From: a virus
Lineage: Duplodnaviria > Heunggongvirae > Uroviricota > Caudoviricetes
IMG/VR virus record: IMGVR_UViG_2609459845_000003
DNA length: 9,794 nt
Direction: 5' to 3' (one strand)
Part shown: piece by piece, positions 1 to 7,790 of the stretch
Layout: every line of letters begins with the position of its first letter
How positions within the stretch are numbered: the stretch's first letter is position 1
Notes under the pieces: generated by a model
The model's database searches: none
The model's input: only the letters and a program-made list of their open reading frames with translations
What the model was told of the DNA's origin: nothing
Made by a program: the position numbers and the translations under genes

Positions 1-6
1 CCTCCT

Positions 7-1335
7 CTATGATATGCGCTGAAATAATCCTGCCTGTCTGATACCCGGAGATGATGTCCATAGCATCGGACCACATGCACGCCACGTGCCCGGTAAACGG
101 GTCTCCCCCACATTACCGGAAGCAACCAGGGGAGTACCATCCGAAAGGCAACATGCAGACAGTGATGAGCCGGCAATGGCTGAGCCCGGTGCCATATCCC
201 CCGAATAACTCGTCGCATAATATGCCGCAAGGACAAAAGAACCGACACCAAACAGTCCGCTGTCAGGACTTCCTGACGGTCCCTGAGGTCCTGCCGGACC
301 TGCGGCTCCCGTATCTCCTTTTGGCCCCTGAGGCCCTGCCTGACCTGCGGCTCCCGTATCCCCTTTTGGCCCCTGTGGTCCTGCCGGGCCTGCAGCTCCC
401 GTATCTCCCTTTGGCCCCTGAGGTCCTGCCGGACCTGCGGCTCCCGTATCTCCTTTTGGCCCCTGAGGTCCTGCCGGGCCTGCAGCTCCCGTATCTCCCT
501 TTGGCCCCTGAGGTCCTGCCGGACCTGCGGCTCCCGTATCTCCTTTTGGCCCCTGAGGTCCTGCCGGGCCTGCAGCTCCCGTATCTCCCTTTGGCCCCTG
601 AGGTCCTGCCGGACCTGCGGCTCCCGTATCTCCTTTTGGCCCCTGAGGCCCTGCCTGACCTGCGGCTCCCGTATCCCCTTTTGGCCCCTGAGGCCCTGCC
701 GGGCCTGCGGCTCCCGTATCCCCTTTTGGCCCCTGAAGCCCTGCCGGGCCTGTATCCCCCTTGTCGCCCTTCGGTCCCAGTGGTCCGCCCGGATCGCCCT
801 GCTCACCTTTCGGACCTGTATCCCCCTTATCGCCCTTGTCACCTTTATCCCCTTTCGGCCCCGGTGGCCCTGCCGGGCCTGTATCGCCCTTGTCCCCCTT
901 CTGTCCCTGTGGACCAGTTGCTCCGGTGTCGCCTTTCAGTCCCTGTGGCCCCACGGCAGTTTCGGCTTTCTCAGCAGCTTCTCGCGCCCTGCGCACAGCC
1001 TCATCCGCCGCCGCTTCCAGCTTCTTCAGTGCATCAGGATAATACGCTGCATCCGTTTCACGGAGCAGAAAGGCATTCAGGGTGCCCGGTTCGTCGTCGG
1101 CCATGACATCAATCTCGCCGGCGCATGCCGGCTGACGACCTTCCACGCACAAGGTCACACGATAACGCCCCGGCTCAACCTGCATGCTGTAACTGCCCGT
1201 TTCGCCTGGCTGGTGCTCTGCCACCGTGGTGACTATCACCGTCTCACTCGTTCGCGTGGCTTTCAGCTCTATGGTGCAGTCCGGTACCGGTTTTCCTGTA
1301 CCATCCTTCAGCACACCTGAAATCTGTACTGACAT
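7..1335 (-). CDS. stf: Side tail fibre protein (Stf-like) with a lambda-Stf-type N-terminal domain, a ~232-residue collagen-like Gly-X-Y shaft and an 82-residue C-terminal tip
   Basis: The N-terminus [28 protein letters not shown]... resembles the lambda Stf / prophage tail-fibre N-terminal domain. Residues 129-360 are uninterrupted G-X-Y triplets ([16 protein letters not shown]...). The ATG at 1333-1335 is preceded by a G-rich Shine-Dalgarno. The tail-fibre assembly gene expected downstream would lie left of the window. Confidence 0.85.
301..750. repeat. Ten tandem direct repeats of a 45-bp unit inside stf, with degenerate copies extending across roughly 256-951
   Basis: Read directly from the sequence: unit TGCGGCTCCCGTATCTCCTTTTGGCCCCTGAGGTCCTGCCGGGCC and close variants at 301, 346, 391 ... 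706. Units 3-8 alternate between two variants, giving a 90-bp higher-order period. Each unit encodes 15 residues (five Gly-X-Y triplets) on the minus strand. Confidence 0.95.
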
Positions 1336-2108
1336 ATTCCCCCCACAAAAAAGCCCACCAGAACCGGCGGGCTGTCATAACTCTGTGTTACCTGGCTATG
1401 GTAGTTCACCGTCATCTGCTGACCACCAAACTGCTCCGCATCCACCTGCATCCCCACAATGGCCGTGTTCGGGTAGCACTGTTTCACATCGATGATTTCG
1501 GTGTATGACGACCACAGCGTTCTGTTCTGCAGCTGGTCCGTGGTGCTGTCCGCCGTCTCCCTGACCATCCGGATGTTAAAGGGGCGGGGAGGCAGATTAT
1601 CCAGAATCACCGAGGCCAGGAACTGTGAGGTGGTCTTGCCGTTAATGGTGACATCCTTTTCTGTCACCCAGTTACCGTTACGCTGTAACTGAATCAGCAG
1701 ACGGACAGAGGACGGATTACGGTCACCCTTTGACGTGGTCTCCACCAGTGACTGCACCCCGAAGGTCACCCGCAGGCGGTCAATGTTCGCTGACGTAATG
1801 GTGCGTGTTACCGGTTTTGCCCTGGTCACTTCGACACCCAGTACAGTTTCAGAGCCGGAGGACTCAAAGCCTTCCGGTGGTGTCTGCTCCTGCTCCCCGG
1901 CACGCCAGACCGCGGTCACACCGTGTATCACGGGATTACCGTCCGTGTCCGTCAGCGGGGTTTTGTTCACCAGAATACTCTGCAGGCTTTTCACCGGGCC
2001 TTCTATCGGTCCCTCACCAATCGCATCAATCACGCTCATCATCTGCGTGGATTTGAGATTGTCTTTCGCCTCACGAGGCGTGTGTGCCTTACCGCCACCT
2101 TTTCCCAT
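1308..2108 (-). pseudogene. J: Tail tip / host-specificity protein J-like, N-terminal fragment only (~237 homologous codons of an expected ~1130)
   Basis: MGKGGGKAHTPREAKDNLKSTQMMSVIDAIGEGPIEGP...TLWSSYTEIIDVKQCYPNTAIVGMQVDAEQFGGQQ matches the lambda gpJ N-terminus. Homology is lost after ...NYH (about 1398), and the frame then runs through the stf upstream intergenic region to a stop at 1308. A good Shine-Dalgarno (GGGGAAGG) precedes the ATG at 2106-2108. Confidence 0.85.
1346..1373 (-). terminator. Rho-independent terminator (minus strand) immediately upstream of stf
   Basis: On the minus strand AGCCCGCC pairs with GGTGGGCT (one G-U pair) across the loop GGTTCT, followed by TTTTTT. It lies 10-40 nt upstream of the stf start codon. 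Confidence 0.45.
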
Positions 2109-2451: not shown

Positions 2452-3117
2452 TTACCCCTGCCGCCCGATAACCACGACCTTTCCGCCCCCGCCTTCATCA
2501 CGGGTGCTGATGTCCTGGGATATACGGCGGGAGCCAACCAGCATTTCCCCGTAAGGCACCGGCATCGGGTTCCCCTGGGCAATCATGTTATCCAGCGAGG
2601 AAAAGTACGTGTTCTGTCTGCCGTTATCCGTTGCGCGGTAATCCGGTGTTTTTGCCTTCGGGGCCAGCATCTGGGCCACACCGCCCAGTATCATGCTGGC
2701 ACCCAGTGAAAACAGCATCGTGGTGGCAGAAAAACCACCGGCACTCAGGGCTGTACCCCATAACGCCATCGAGCCTCCGGCCGTGAAGAAAGAGCCCACG
2801 ATGGCTGCCGCCCCCAACACAATCTGCAGTCCACCCTTTCCGGCCCCGGCCAGTCGCGGCACAATGTGGATGACCGTTCCCTCACCCAGCTGTTCGTGAA
2901 GGCGGGCGTACACCACCTCCGGTGCCGTGTCTTCACCGGCAATACGTATCTGGTACCAGCCTTCGTTCATCTGAAGGCGAAAGCCCGGCATCTGCATCGA
3001 CAGGGCGCGAATGGCTTCCGCTGCCGTGTTCACATACAGGCTGAGGCGGCGGCCAAATCGTTGTAAATCCCCGTGGTTGCCCACGGTTGAGCCAGAGATA
3101 ACAGCTTCCACCATCAT
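2452..3117 (-). pseudogene. I: Tail tip assembly protein I-like; the native N-terminus (~20 codons) is missing and replaced by FII-derived sequence
   Basis: From ...GDLQRFGRRLSLYVNTAAEAIRAL... through ...FSLGASMILGGVAQMLAPKAKTPDYRATDNGRQNTYFSSLDNMIAQGN...GKVVVIGR the ORF resembles lambda gpI (ubiquitin-like tail assembly protein). The first ~15 codons (MMVEAVISGSTVGNH) are FII DNA read in a different frame. Confidence 0.7.
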
Positions 3118-3403
3118 CCGGCGAAACCCGGTCTATCCAGAAGTTTTCCTCACCGATGGTCAGCGTGTCTCCACGCCGCAGTTGCCGCACATCATCAGTC
3201 CGGACAAACAGGGACGGGCTGGAGCCTTCAACGCGCACGCCCTGTCCGGCATAGCTGATATTTTCAGGGTCATCAAAAACACCACGTATTACTGCGCCGG
3301 ACTGCTCACCGGATGTCATGGTGGCTGACGTTCCCATGTACCCGCGTATCGTTTCATCGGCGCGGGCAATGGCAGCATCGAACAGGTTATCGAAATCAGC
3401 CAC
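2933..3403 (-). pseudogene. FII: Head completion / head-tail connector FII-like; the C-terminus is replaced by out-of-frame read-through into the I region
   Basis: MADFDNLFDAAIARADETIRGYMGTSAT...DRVSPDDGGSCYLWLNRG matches lambda gpFII (117 aa as recalled) to about residue 108. In place of the short native C-terminus the frame runs on for ~48 codons (QPRGFTTIWPPPQPV...) across sequence that encodes the I protein in another frame. Confidence 0.75.
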
Positions 3404-6594: not shown

Positions 6595-7747
6595 TCTTCT
6601 CCTCCTCTGTTGATTGTCGCAGTCCGGATTCAAATGCCGCAGCCGCCCAGGCGGGCGGTTTAAGACCGGCTGCACGGCGCTCCATCGTTTCACGGACCTG
6701 CTGGGCAAAAATTTCCTGATAGTCGTCACCGCGTTTTGCGCACTCTTTCTCGTAGGTACTCAGTCCGGCTTCTATCAGCATCACCGCTTCCTGTACTTCT
6801 TTCAGACCATCGATGGCCATACGACCGGAGCCTATCCAGTCACAGTTCCCCCAGGCGCTGCGGGCTTCCTGAAAGCTGAAACGCGCTTTTGAAGGTAACG
6901 TCACCACGCGGCGAACGATGGCCTCTTCCAGCCAGCACAGAAACATCTGGCTCGCCTGACGGGATGCGACGAATTTTCGCCGCCCCATAAAGTACGCCCA
7001 CGACTCGTTCGCACTGGCCCGTGCCGTGGAATAGCTCATCTGGGCGTAATTCCGGGAAAGCTGCTCATACGAGACACCCAGCCCGGCAGCGATATACCGC
7101 AACAGTGACTGCTCAAACACGGAGTAGCCGTTATCCGTATCCTGAGCCGTCTGCAGGTTCAGTGAGTCACCCGGCATCAGGTGCGGCACTTTTGCGCCTC
7201 CCAGCCGAACCGGTGCTGCGGCGTAATACGCGGCAATTTCACCAATCCAGCCGGTCAGCTTGTCCCGCTGCTCCTGACTGTTCGCGCCCAGAATAAAATC
7301 CATCGCTGACTGCGTATCCAGCTCACTCTCAATGGTGGCGGCATACATCGCCTTCACAATGGCGCTCTGCAGCTGCGTGTTCTGCAGCGTGTCGAGCATC
7401 TTCATCTGCTCCATCACGCTGTAAAACACATTTGCACCGCGGGTCTGCCCGTCCTCCACGGGTTCAAAAACGTGAATGAACGAGGCGCGCCCGCCGGGTA
7501 ACTCACGGGGTATCCATGTCCATTTCTGCGGCATCCAGCCAGGATAGCCGTCCTCGCTGACGTAATATCCCAGCGCCGCACCGCTGTCATTAATCTGCAC
7601 ACCGGCACGGCAGTTCCGGCTGTCGCCGGTATTGTTCGGGTTGCTGATGCGCTTCGGGCTGACCATCCGGAACTGTGTCCGGAAAAGCCACGACGGACTG
7701 GTATCCCAGGTGGCCTGAACGAACAGTTCACCGTTAAAGGCGTGCAT
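6575..7747 (-). pseudogene. B: Portal protein (lambda gpB-like) lacking roughly the N-terminal 143 residues
   Basis: The ORF matches lambda gpB from MHAFNGELFVQATWDTS... through to the C-terminus ...ESGLRQSTEEEKSDSRAA. Upstream of that internal ATG (7745-7747) the frame holds only 8 unrelated codons back to a TTG at 7771, then the A stop codon. Only 15 bp separate A from this ORF, so there is no room for the missing portal N-terminus. Confidence 0.85.
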
Positions 7748-7790
7748 GCAGTGCCGCACGGGCAGCGGCAAGTTCTTCCTGTCGCGTCAT
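7734..7790 (-). pseudogene. W: Remnant of head-tail joining gene W: only the first ~15 codons, then out-of-frame sequence and a stop
   Basis: An ATG at 7788-7790 overlaps the A stop in the ATGA arrangement and encodes MTRQEELAAARAALH, the lambda gpW N-terminus as recalled. It then reads ARL-stop instead of continuing as DLMTGKRV..., so the rest of W is missing. Confidence 0.7.

Follow-up and report, generated by a model that had tools for sequence, protein, structure and literature searches.

The window, a stretch of 9,794 nt corresponding to an entire draft contig, carries at 7..1335, on the minus strand, a complete side tail-fibre (stf-like) gene of 442 codons, followed by a TAG stop at 7-9, as read from the ORF list and the translation. 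The protein matches the Pfam families PF08400 over residues 1-127 (E 1.2e-40, 139 bits for a cut-off of 26.6) and PF01391, Collagen (E 1.2e-34), as well as the PHROG family phrog_366, 'tail fiber protein' (E 1e-93). Its orthologues are annotated as 'prophage tail fiber N-terminal domain-containing protein'.

From the N- to the C-terminus, the protein starts with the PfN or Phage_tail_N domain (aa 1-127; 955..1335, minus strand). Residues 1-91 (1063-1335) form a collar domain matching chain Ta, 'Tail fiber protein', of PDB entry 9E7M (E 9e-28), and residues ~92-127 (within 955..1335) a short helical linker between this domain and the shaft. A long PCoil region is absent, the collagen region beginning at residue 129, directly behind PfN. 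The Gly-X-Y region extends over residues 129-357 and is broken once, by a single residue. A regular-expression search of the translation delineates a first collagen-like segment (aa 129-185; 781..951) of 19 degenerate triplets including a GDK run, within which Tandem Repeats Finder (TRF) reports a 9-bp period at 815-855. Leu186 (778..780), in the stretch G-D-P-G-G-P-L-G (aa 180-187), breaks the register, and the second segment (aa 187-357; 265..777) comprises 57 uninterrupted triplets. The non-collagen C-terminal part (aa 358-442; 10..264) is termed here the knob. The lambda-Stf-like anchor and the collagen-like shaft proposed from the sequence alone are both backed by these matches, while the 82-residue tip of that reading is in fact 85 residues long.

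The 45-bp repeat array

TRF identifies one array of period 45 at 281-752, with 10.5 copies, 92% matches, no indels, and a score of 790. In the coding register, it resolves by TRF, the unit table and lag analysis into ten tandem units at 283..732 (minus strand), each encoding 15 residues ending in (P/Q)AGPQ, and unit typing adds a degenerate eleventh, the leading unit of the array, at 733..777. The ten near-perfect 45-bp repeats of the sequence-only reading are hence real, but its span of 256-951 is that of the whole collagen-like region and not of the array. With head-to-tail units of high identity and a length multiple of three, the array is a coding variable-number tandem repeat (VNTR).

Units 3, 5, 7 and 10 are identical, as are units 4 and 6, with unit 8 departing from the latter pair at 1 nt. 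A further identical pair, units 2 and 9, harbors the sole amino-acid change of the array (P to Q). The units vary at seven positions, six of which are synonymous. Lag-45 identity over 265-777 amounts to 0.893, above all of 2000 shuffles of the Gly-X-Y 9-mers (maximum at any lag 0.694, mean 0.613), which places the periodicity far beyond what collagen coding alone would give. Units 3-8 (373..642, minus strand) consist of a 90-bp two-unit block present three times in tandem (labels 4,5,4,5,4,6), the order of unit types being [.,2,3,(4,5),(4,5),(4,6),3,4]. Over these units, mismatches are 16/225 at lag 45 versus 1/180 at lag 90. At the longer lag, exact matching extends over 182 nt at most, and the array contains a 272-nt stretch that is perfectly 90-bp periodic. 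The 90-bp supra-period, as well as the block duplication that had been proposed to explain it, is therefore genuine.

Family membership and variation among strains

Ghosh et al. (2012; PMC3368898) defined the EPclA-D architectures of the EPclP family, together with a GxPGGPxG interruption and a GP(Q/P)-GPK-G(D/E) pattern. The 7-1335 protein possesses PfN, the collagen domain and, at residues 180-187, this interruption; judged by its sequence, it belongs to the EPclPs and is closest to the EPclC type (P-EibA ORF-401, ECED1_1681). ORF-401 of P-EibA, the EPclC archetype, aligns with it end to end at 46.7% identity. Both have a PfN followed by a Gly-X-Y shaft of variable length with GPQ-GPK-GD(T/K) triplets, and both are devoid of PfC (PF06820, for which neither the full protein nor the knob alone gives a Pfam match) and of a long PCoil. 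They also occupy the same locus after J and lom, upstream of an ORF-191A/DUF4376 gene; ORF-191A, downstream of ORF-401, shares 43% identity with the DUF4376 protein of the intact relatives. In contrast, the EPclC archetypes have two collagen domains split by a Pf2 segment, whereas the 7-1335 protein has one shaft with a one-residue break. With no Pfam match to the Pf2 repeat (PF03406) and with Gly-X-Y runs one residue apart, its architecture, PfN - Col - tip, is a variant one. Ghosh et al. (PMC3368898) do not describe the highly regular 45-bp array; the family itself and the variable collagen length between its copies were already published there. Neither the protein family nor this kind of repeat-number variation is new.

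Orthologues from complete genomes (n = 13) are 367, 382, 397, 412, 427 or 442 residues long, plus one of 415 and a frameshifted one of 378; almost all stand on a 15-residue ladder, as expected if length changes by in-frame steps of one unit. The comparison of copy number across strains that the sequence-only reading had called for yields 6 to 11 units per array, drawn from 68 distinct unit sequences, so that the count is not invariant. The G-x-P-G-G-P-x-G interruption is kept in the 13 orthologues. In the pair ECOR29 and A8, the flanks are identical over 815/816 nt and the arrays nonetheless count 11 and 7 units, a four-unit difference; the ECOR29 array contains a duplicated three-unit block. 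Strains 14EC001 and ZH48 differ by one unit, and the unit at the junction is cleanly chimeric: in locus L002, it joins the 5' part of one unit of locus L001 to the 3' part of the next, adjacent one. Such a chimera is what misaligned recombination or slippage leaves behind, the two processes that had been suspected. Sister genomes from the same source have equal lengths (ZH48/ZH49, ST865/ST866). A search of 5,426 complete E. coli genomes for the alternating array of units 3-8 found it nowhere, the best match being at 91.4%; this fits a recent and private expansion, as the near-identity of the units had suggested.

Since 45 is a multiple of 9, each gain or loss of a unit leaves the reading frame intact, as well as the Gly-X-Y register. 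A phase-variable contingency locus was also considered; this reading was rejected because the unit is 45 bp long and all observed variants are in frame.

Taken together, these features make it probable (roughly 0.85) that the 7-1335 gene, on the minus strand, encodes the trimeric side tail fiber of a lambda-like E. coli prophage, a member of the EPclPs whose shaft is a misalignment-driven 45-bp VNTR. Its N-terminal 91 residues, the Stf collar domain, would dock on the tail tube/tip junction, predicted by homology to be that between gpV and gpM. The ~228 Gly-X-Y residues would form a collagen triple-helical shaft of ~65 nm, as computed at 0.286 nm per residue, with ~4.3 nm added per 15-residue unit. 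The triple helix is suggested by analogy with EPclA, a trimer with a true collagen helix and the one EPclP for which biochemical proof has been provided (PMC3368898). The distal two-thirds of the shaft correspond to the VNTR, in which misaligned homologous recombination or replication slippage probably adds, removes and homogenizes units, either singly or in blocks of two or three. The two-unit block of 90 bp was probably triplicated recently in the lineage of this gene. The 85-residue knob would be the distal tip of the fiber, with a chaperone-like DUF4376 gene next to it in intact relatives.

The knob alone matches no Pfam family and no solved fold, and only marginally (E 0.002-0.009) the C-termini of long tail proteins in PHROG. 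Its AlphaFold2 model, calculated as a monomer, is all-beta with a pLDDT of 69.9. In the family alignment, between-strain variation of the knob concentrates at residues 385-387, 404-413 and 424-432. A single-sequence HMMER search against 1.84 billion representatives returned nine matches, with whole-knob alignments in two proteins only (P0011 and P0013, 46% identity) and a chimera in a third (P0007); four matches in long proteins, covering short repeated stretches only, were discarded as low-complexity noise. A second tip subgroup is ~46-48% identical to the knob. The word-indexed search returned mostly partial proteins, and a four-sequence profile performed better, retrieving both the knob type and the P-EibA type with their motifs aligned. 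VGSF, PGTWRA and LFQRI are common to the tips of the 7-1335 protein and of P-EibA ORF-401, while pairwise BLAST between these tips is weak (E 0.001) and covers the PGTWRA...LFQRI segment alone. The knob also resembles predicted tail-fiber proteins of many phages. Against 50,697 phage records, tblastn gave matches to the N-terminal domain only (to ~aa 90-144) and no isolate with the knob; its use in a virion is therefore suggested by homology and gene order. The exact protein sequence was not found in a collection of 15 billion proteins. Binding of the receptor by the knob and a chaperone role of the DUF4376 protein are both plausible, and the pair might, though with low probability, represent an uncharacterized receptor-binding tip/chaperone system, widespread at tail-fiber ends across unrelated phages.

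Prophage context and alternative explanations

In intact relatives, the gene order at the prophage end is J - lom - fiber - DUF4376. The window ends 6 bp past the fiber gene, on the AGGAGG ribosome-binding site (1..6, minus strand) of the next gene; at L001, the DUF4376 gene starts right behind the equivalent GGAGG, with the sequence TC-ATG. On the other side, a terminator-like hairpin with a T-run (1352..1373, minus strand) lies just upstream of the fiber gene, in what is the lom-stf intergenic region in intact relatives. Beyond it, a deletion junction with a 5-bp overlap (1394..1398) fuses gpJ at codon ~239 to this intergenic region: by blastn, 1-1398 corresponds to 6001-7352 of L001 and 1394-2111 to 10693-11411, ~3.3 kb (the rest of J and lom) being missing in between. 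The stf position, after J and lom, is seen in the orthologues; here lom and most of J are deleted and the flanks are collinear. Three deletions relative to L001 have taken away W and the portal N-terminus, Z through K, as well as lom and most of J; with its tail genes lost, the prophage cannot use this fiber copy on its own virion. An Rfam scan of the whole window returned no family.

Two readings question the identity of the gene. A plus-strand frame at 51-1106 (351 codons) is open and would turn the repeats into a Pro/Leu-rich protein; this has next to no chance of being the true gene, as domain matches fall exclusively on the minus strand, the differences between units are synonymous in the minus-strand frame, and annotated orthologues all lie on the equivalent strand. 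Neither homologues nor domain matches were seen for the 351-residue product, and the frame was dropped as the mirror of a stop-free repeat. Instead of a phage fiber, the protein could also be a bacterial surface adhesin comparable to Lcl of Legionella or Scl of streptococci. Its unit has the same size as that of Lcl (15 residues, five Gly-X-Y triplets), its copy number likewise varies between strains, and the gene persists in a prophage devoid of tail genes. However, the N-terminus is an Stf collar domain, a hydrophobic signal-peptide-like stretch is absent, and intact relatives hold the gene at the lambda stf position, ahead of a fiber-chaperone-like gene. The N-terminal domain and the gene context led us to abandon this reading, which is very improbable.

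The two others accept a tail-fiber gene and concern the count of ten and present function. The count comes from the draft assembly GCA_000704585.1; short reads may not have spanned the 272-nt stretch of perfect 90-bp periodicity, so that two-unit blocks could have been assembled in the wrong number. Collapse or over-expansion of a real array, in particular of its three 90-bp blocks, is unlikely, although some points speak for it: the window is a whole draft contig ending close to the fiber gene, the alternating array recurs in no complete genome, and many collagen-like tail proteins deposited as 'partial' in public databases start inside arrays at contig ends, an indication that assemblers often fail there. 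Against such an artefact, complete genomes contain similar arrays of up to 11 units with block duplications, making ten units with a repeated block biologically ordinary; the contig crosses the array and reaches unique sequence at either end of it; and unit 8, in the third block, has a private 1-nt difference, unexpected for a simple loop over-count. A more serious contender, to which we grant somewhat less than even odds, sees in the gene a non-functional remnant left by prophage decay, and in its repeat variation neutral slippage with no present role in fiber length. This reading bears on current function and not on the identity of the gene. The three deletions speak for it, as do the terminator-like hairpin before the gene and the absence of any promoter-like site found upstream on the coding strand. 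Related copies decay as well: in MLI104K2 both the tip and J are frameshifted, and J is truncated in several genomes. On the other hand, the 442-codon ORF is intact, a weak argument for function because 45-bp indels never break the frame, and the variable positions of the units are mostly synonymous. Defective prophages can moreover be rescued via co-resident lambdoid prophages, according to work cited by Ghosh et al. (PMC3368898), so that the fiber gene could act in trans or contribute sequence by recombination. The function of this copy in its gutted prophage is doubtful, while its identity as an EPclP side tail-fiber gene with a variable array is the reading retained.

Comparable systems and biological meaning

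A structural counterpart is gpStf of Ur-lambda (PDB 9E7M), in which residues 1-94 (gpStfN) form a 12-copy collar at the gpV/gpM junction (PMC12617516). The collar domains are homologous, both genes lie after J and lom, and both products presumably act as accessory side fibers speeding adsorption. Beyond residue ~127, the 7-1335 protein displays no similarity to lambda Stf. Lambda builds its fiber from coiled-coil segments and others resembling T4 gp37, with a tip that binds OmpC and with Tfa as chaperone (PMC12617516), whereas the 7-1335 protein has a collagen-like shaft, an unrelated 85-residue knob and, in relatives, a DUF4376 gene next to it instead of Tfa. In Alteromonas phages V22 and A5, a short distal fiber knob is followed by a separate DUF4376 gene of ~200 residues, and the DUF4376 proteins are tail-fiber chaperones, as described in the accessible part of PMC10579305, which reports no collagen-like character for these fibers. 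The likeness stems from gene arrangement, the DUF4376 gene lying outside the window here, with its ribosome-binding site alone present.

Other systems share the collagen motif. Lcl of Legionella pneumophila resembles the fiber protein by its 15-residue unit, its strain-variable number of copies (11-18), which alters binding strength (PMC6460258), and a C-terminal domain without known homology; it is, however, a bacterial adhesin, secreted and equipped with a signal sequence, devoid of PfN and not homologous outside the collagen motif. BclA of Bacillus anthracis, whose collagen-repeat copy-number variation is documented by Sylvestre et al., has a C-terminal trimerizing domain and weakly matches the collagen region of the fiber protein in a PDB search (1WCK). 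It differs in being a glycosylated spore-surface protein with a 134-residue C-terminal domain, unrelated to phage tails. Among viral attachment-related genes, ORF8 of the Guarani virophage and the antireceptor genes of Streptococcus thermophilus phages also harbor tandem collagen-like repeats. An in-frame 81-nt deletion in the repeats of ORF8 accompanied host-range expansion (PMC7242381), and collagen-like repeats have been proposed as phage recombination hot spots (PMC7242381, PMC5601072). Units (27 nt in Guarani), proteins and viruses are all different there, with nothing in common beyond Gly-X-Y.

Unit number might conceivably affect adsorption or host range. It can be speculated that selection, and not neutral slippage, has made the 45-bp array a module for tuning length, and that the intact copy is kept for use in trans or as a donor; we consider this improbable. 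If true, unit number would outpace point mutation and match fiber reach, by ~4.3 nm per unit, to the depth of the O-antigen or capsule, and co-resident lambdoid phages would draw on the intact copy in trans or by recombination. More generally, such arrays break or distort short-read assemblies and give rise to the 'partial' collagen-like proteins, and copy numbers from draft genomes are not to be trusted. The knob and its DUF4376 partner would constitute a more rewarding experimental target than the array itself. The comparative data provide a clean footprint of unit gain and loss, in which unit number shifts while the remainder of the gene is nearly unchanged. An in-frame repeat array is a simple route to altered fiber length, of modest biological weight, and collagen-like lambdoid side fibers may influence the adsorption of Shiga-toxin and other converting phages to new hosts.

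Architecture and family placement of the fibre protein

The fibre gene (7-1335, minus strand, 442 codons) is the sole long ORF with domain support across its region, and its product is made of an anchor, a collagen-like shaft and a small knob. Residues 1-127 match the Pfam family PF08400 'Prophage tail fibre N-terminal' (E 1.2e-40), and residues 1-91 the 'Tail fiber protein' chain of PDB 9E7M, the solved Ur-lambda virion (E 9e-28), in agreement with the lambda-Stf-like anchor proposed by the sequence-only reading. In the Ur-lambda structure (PMC12617516), twelve copies of the gpStf N-terminal domain make up a collar at the gpV/gpM junction, and four trimeric side fibres emerge from it. The shaft (residues 129-357) is collagen-like, as also proposed (PF01391, E 1.2e-34). 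It counts 76 triplets, 37 of them with Pro at the X position, the commonest being GDT, GPK, GPQ, GPA and GAA. The remaining non-collagen C-terminus, the knob (residues 358-442), is 85 residues long rather than the 82 first given, and matched no family in a Pfam search.

The orthologues of thirteen complete E. coli genomes are placed after gpJ and lom, and a gene encoding a DUF4376 protein of ~200 amino acids lies 7-10 bp 3' of each, at the prophage end. In Alteromonas phages V22 and A5, the tail-fibre chaperones belong to DUF4376, and have been proposed to be transient fibre caps (PMC10579305). A bacterial adhesin was rejected because of the collar domain, the phage gene context and the lack of a signal-like N-terminus. 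To note, bases 1-6 of the window are the reverse complement of AGGAGG, which in strain 14EC001 is the ribosome-binding site preceding the DUF4376 start codon; the contig end falls 2-3 nt short of the position of the DUF4376 ATG in relatives. This assembly break is probably due to a gene repeated in other prophages. A terminator-like hairpin (1352-1373, minus strand; 9-bp stem with 6 GC pairs, followed by a T-run) lies ~15 nt upstream of the fibre start codon; it stems from the lom-stf intergenic region.

Collagen-like proteins of E. coli prophages have been classified as EPclA-D by Ghosh et al. 2012 (PMC3368898). They share the PfN domain (PF08400), collagen domains of variable length whose differences are 'typically multiples of three', a G-x-P-G-G-P-x-G interruption of the collagen sequence, and a recurrent GP(Q/P)-GPK-G(D/E) pattern; EPclC and EPclD have C-terminal regions unrelated to PfC (PF06820), and often lack PCoil. 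Experiments on EPclA showed a trimer, dumbbell-shaped, whose true collagen helix melts at 42 °C (PMC3368898). The window protein has every sequence feature of the family, G-D-P-G-G-P-L-G among them. Its alignment with P-EibA ORF-401, the EPclC archetype, spans the full length (46.7% identity), the tip motifs GSF, PGTWRA and LFQRI being common to both, and the genes downstream of P-EibA ORF-401 and of the fibre's relatives are 43% identical. Whereas the collagen region of EPclC archetypes is split by a Pf2 segment (PF03406), the window protein has none. It is therefore placed among the EPcl-family fibres, with an EPclC-like architecture in simplified form, PfN - Col - knob.

The 45-bp array and its variation between strains

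The collagen-like region comprises two Gly-X-Y runs on the minus strand, 781-951 and 265-777, separated by a single extra residue, Leu186; the second run, after Leu186, holds the array. The stretch 256-951, previously assigned to the array, hence corresponds to the whole collagen-like region, while the units themselves occupy 283-732 (minus strand), preceded in the coding direction by a degenerate eleventh unit (733-777, minus strand). Tandem Repeats Finder detects one strong array at 281-752 (period 45, 10.5 copies, 92% matches, no indels, score 790), and the coding frame delineates ten units, a count resting on a draft contig, each with a peptide ending in (P/Q)AGPQ. When the 9-bp Gly-X-Y blocks were shuffled 2000 times, keeping the collagen composition, identity reached at most 0.694 at any lag, as compared to 0.893 observed at lag 45. 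Units 3, 5, 7 and 10 are the same sequence, units 4 and 6 are identical with unit 8 one base away from both, and the sole amino-acid change of the array is in units 2 and 9, which match each other exactly; all but one of the seven variable positions are synonymous. Within units 3-8 (373-642), mismatches amount to 16/225 at lag 45 versus 1/180 at lag 90, where the longest exact run reaches 182 nt; the 90-bp supra-period is therefore genuine. Unit typing resolves it as a two-unit block present three times, (4,5)(4,5)(4,6), the numbers in brackets being unit sequence types.

Repeat number varies between strains, and the array is not invariant. Typing all 45-bp units of 14 arrays, each with 6-11 units, yielded 68 distinct sequences, and the thirteen orthologues are 367, 382, 397, 412, 427 or 442 residues long, besides one of 415 and a frameshifted one of 378, as anticipated for 15-residue steps that preserve the frame. 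A phase-variable contingency locus was rejected because every variant is in frame. The most direct comparison is that of ECOR29 (L008 806-2134) and A8 (L009 806-1954), with flanks identical over 557/558 and 258/258 nt (1/816 nt differing) and arrays of 11 and 7 units, indicating that change in unit number outpaces the accumulation of point substitutions. Between strains 14EC001 and ZH48 the difference is a single unit: in the place of 14EC001 units 3 and 12, ZH48 has one unit, which agrees with unit 3 at its positions 12 and 30 and with unit 12 at its positions 32 and 39. This chimeric junction is a clean crossover between neighbouring units, the footprint expected of misaligned recombination or slippage, and supports the origin initially suggested for the array. 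Block events are recurrent, as ECOR29 carries a duplicated three-unit (135-bp) block, (44,45,45)(46,45,45), besides the two-unit block of the window. Sister genomes of one source (ZH48/ZH49, ST865/ST866) have the same length, so hypermutation does not operate on outbreak time scales. The alternating array of the window is absent from 5,426 complete genomes (best match 91.4%), which fits a recent, private expansion in its lineage. Taking 0.286 nm per residue, the usual rise of collagen, each unit would add ~4.3 nm to a collagen region of ~65 nm, and the 75-residue range of the orthologues would correspond to ~21 nm.

Most tip relatives in public databases (proteins P0001-P0004 and P0015-P0043) are 'partial' proteins, 95-195 amino acids long, which start inside collagen repeats where contigs end: breaks in such arrays are evidently routine in short-read assemblies. 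The existence and type of the window array are secure, since equivalent arrays occur in complete genomes, while the exact count of ten is a draft-contig figure, for an array with a perfectly 90-bp-periodic stretch of 272 nt.

A fibre gene in a decayed prophage

The window corresponds to a complete contig (JNRH01000099.1, 9,794 bp) of the draft assembly GCA_000704585.1, and exhibits three deletions relative to intact prophages. The first (~3.3 kb, junction 1394-1398, 5-bp overlap) runs from gpJ codon ~239 to the lom-stf intergenic region, removing most of gpJ and lom. The second (~4.5 kb, junction ~3075-3090) extends from the gpFII C-terminus through the gpI N-terminus, both lost, and removes Z, U, V, G, T, H, M, L and K, so that all tail-tube, tape-measure and tip genes are missing. 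The third (585 bp, junction 7745-7748) removed W and the portal N-terminus. Overlaps of 4-5 bp occur at two of the three junctions. Judged from this gene content, the prophage cannot build a tail, and its fibre cannot serve its own virion. The intactness of the fibre ORF says little here, because 45-bp changes never break the frame.

A 156-codon ORF (2933-3403, minus strand) is a fusion created by the second deletion: it begins as gpFII (Pfam Phage_attach), continues past the ~3075-3090 junction into gpI sequence and overlaps the gpI ORF as called. An AT-rich, non-coding spacer of 343 bp (2109-2451) separates gpI from the gpJ fragment; it matched no Rfam family, and its part 2111-2285 is without counterpart in the two intact relatives compared. 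On its plus strand, a near-consensus promoter-like site (TTCACA-16-TATAAT, 2314-2341) precedes a terminator-like hairpin (2420-2436), which together could yield an antisense transcript of ~90 nt; its minus strand bears a strong hairpin at ~2205-2240.

Related fibre-gene copies are decaying in other genomes (loci L004, L005, L010, L012 and L013). The MLI104K2 copy (L004 862-1998) is the 378-residue protein with a frameshifted tip, and gpJ is frameshifted or truncated beside the fibre gene in five genomes. In ST866 the DUF4376 gene is split, and in CFIAFB20120266 a shorter hypothetical ORF, abutting an IS21-family istB gene, takes its place. Tip relative P0007 (194 amino acids, from a 9,352-bp contig) is a chimeric ORF with a terminase large subunit-like N-terminus, its last 32 residues being identical to the C-terminus of the window tip; it may derive from another heavily deleted copy of this prophage type.

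The knob and other collagen-repeat systems

A profile built from four tips retrieved 37 proteins, mainly from E. coli and Citrobacter, all with collagen sequence upstream. Conserved motifs are V/I-G-S/T-F/Y, G-S-x-L-x-x-C, P-G-T/S-W-R/M-x-C and G-L-F-Q-R. Relatives were very few when 1.84 billion representatives were searched exhaustively with the single tip sequence, and no phage isolate among 50,697 records carries this tip. The AlphaFold2 monomer model, based on a 32-sequence alignment, is all-beta and of moderate confidence (pLDDT 69.9, pTM 0.65). Foldseek against predicted viral structures gave ~25 matches (probability 1.0, TM-score 0.5-0.63, identity 19-30%), and nearly all the named ones are annotated tail-fibre proteins of unrelated phages; the modelled fold thus looks like a recurrent, experimentally uncharacterised fibre-end module. 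Amino-acid differences between orthologues concentrate at residues 385-387, 404-413 and 424-432, which are candidate receptor-contact sites; residues 404-410 (model residues 59-65) form the sole internal low-confidence stretch of the model. The 85-residue knob, together with its DUF4376 partner, is the least understood component.

In-frame copy-number variation of collagen-like repeats is, for its part, well documented. Legionella Lcl has a 15-residue unit, as the window array does, in 11-18 copies, more copies conferring more binding (PMC6460258), and the triplet number of Bacillus anthracis BclA is strain-specific (Sylvestre et al.). Host-range expansion of the Guarani virophage went along with the in-frame loss of 81 nt from collagen-like repeats, and such repeats in phages have been proposed to be recombination hot spots (PMC7242381); they also separate the domains of Streptococcus thermophilus phage antireceptor genes (PMC5601072). 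The observation of the collagen-like array is therefore correct and well supported, and the window fibre fits an already described kind.
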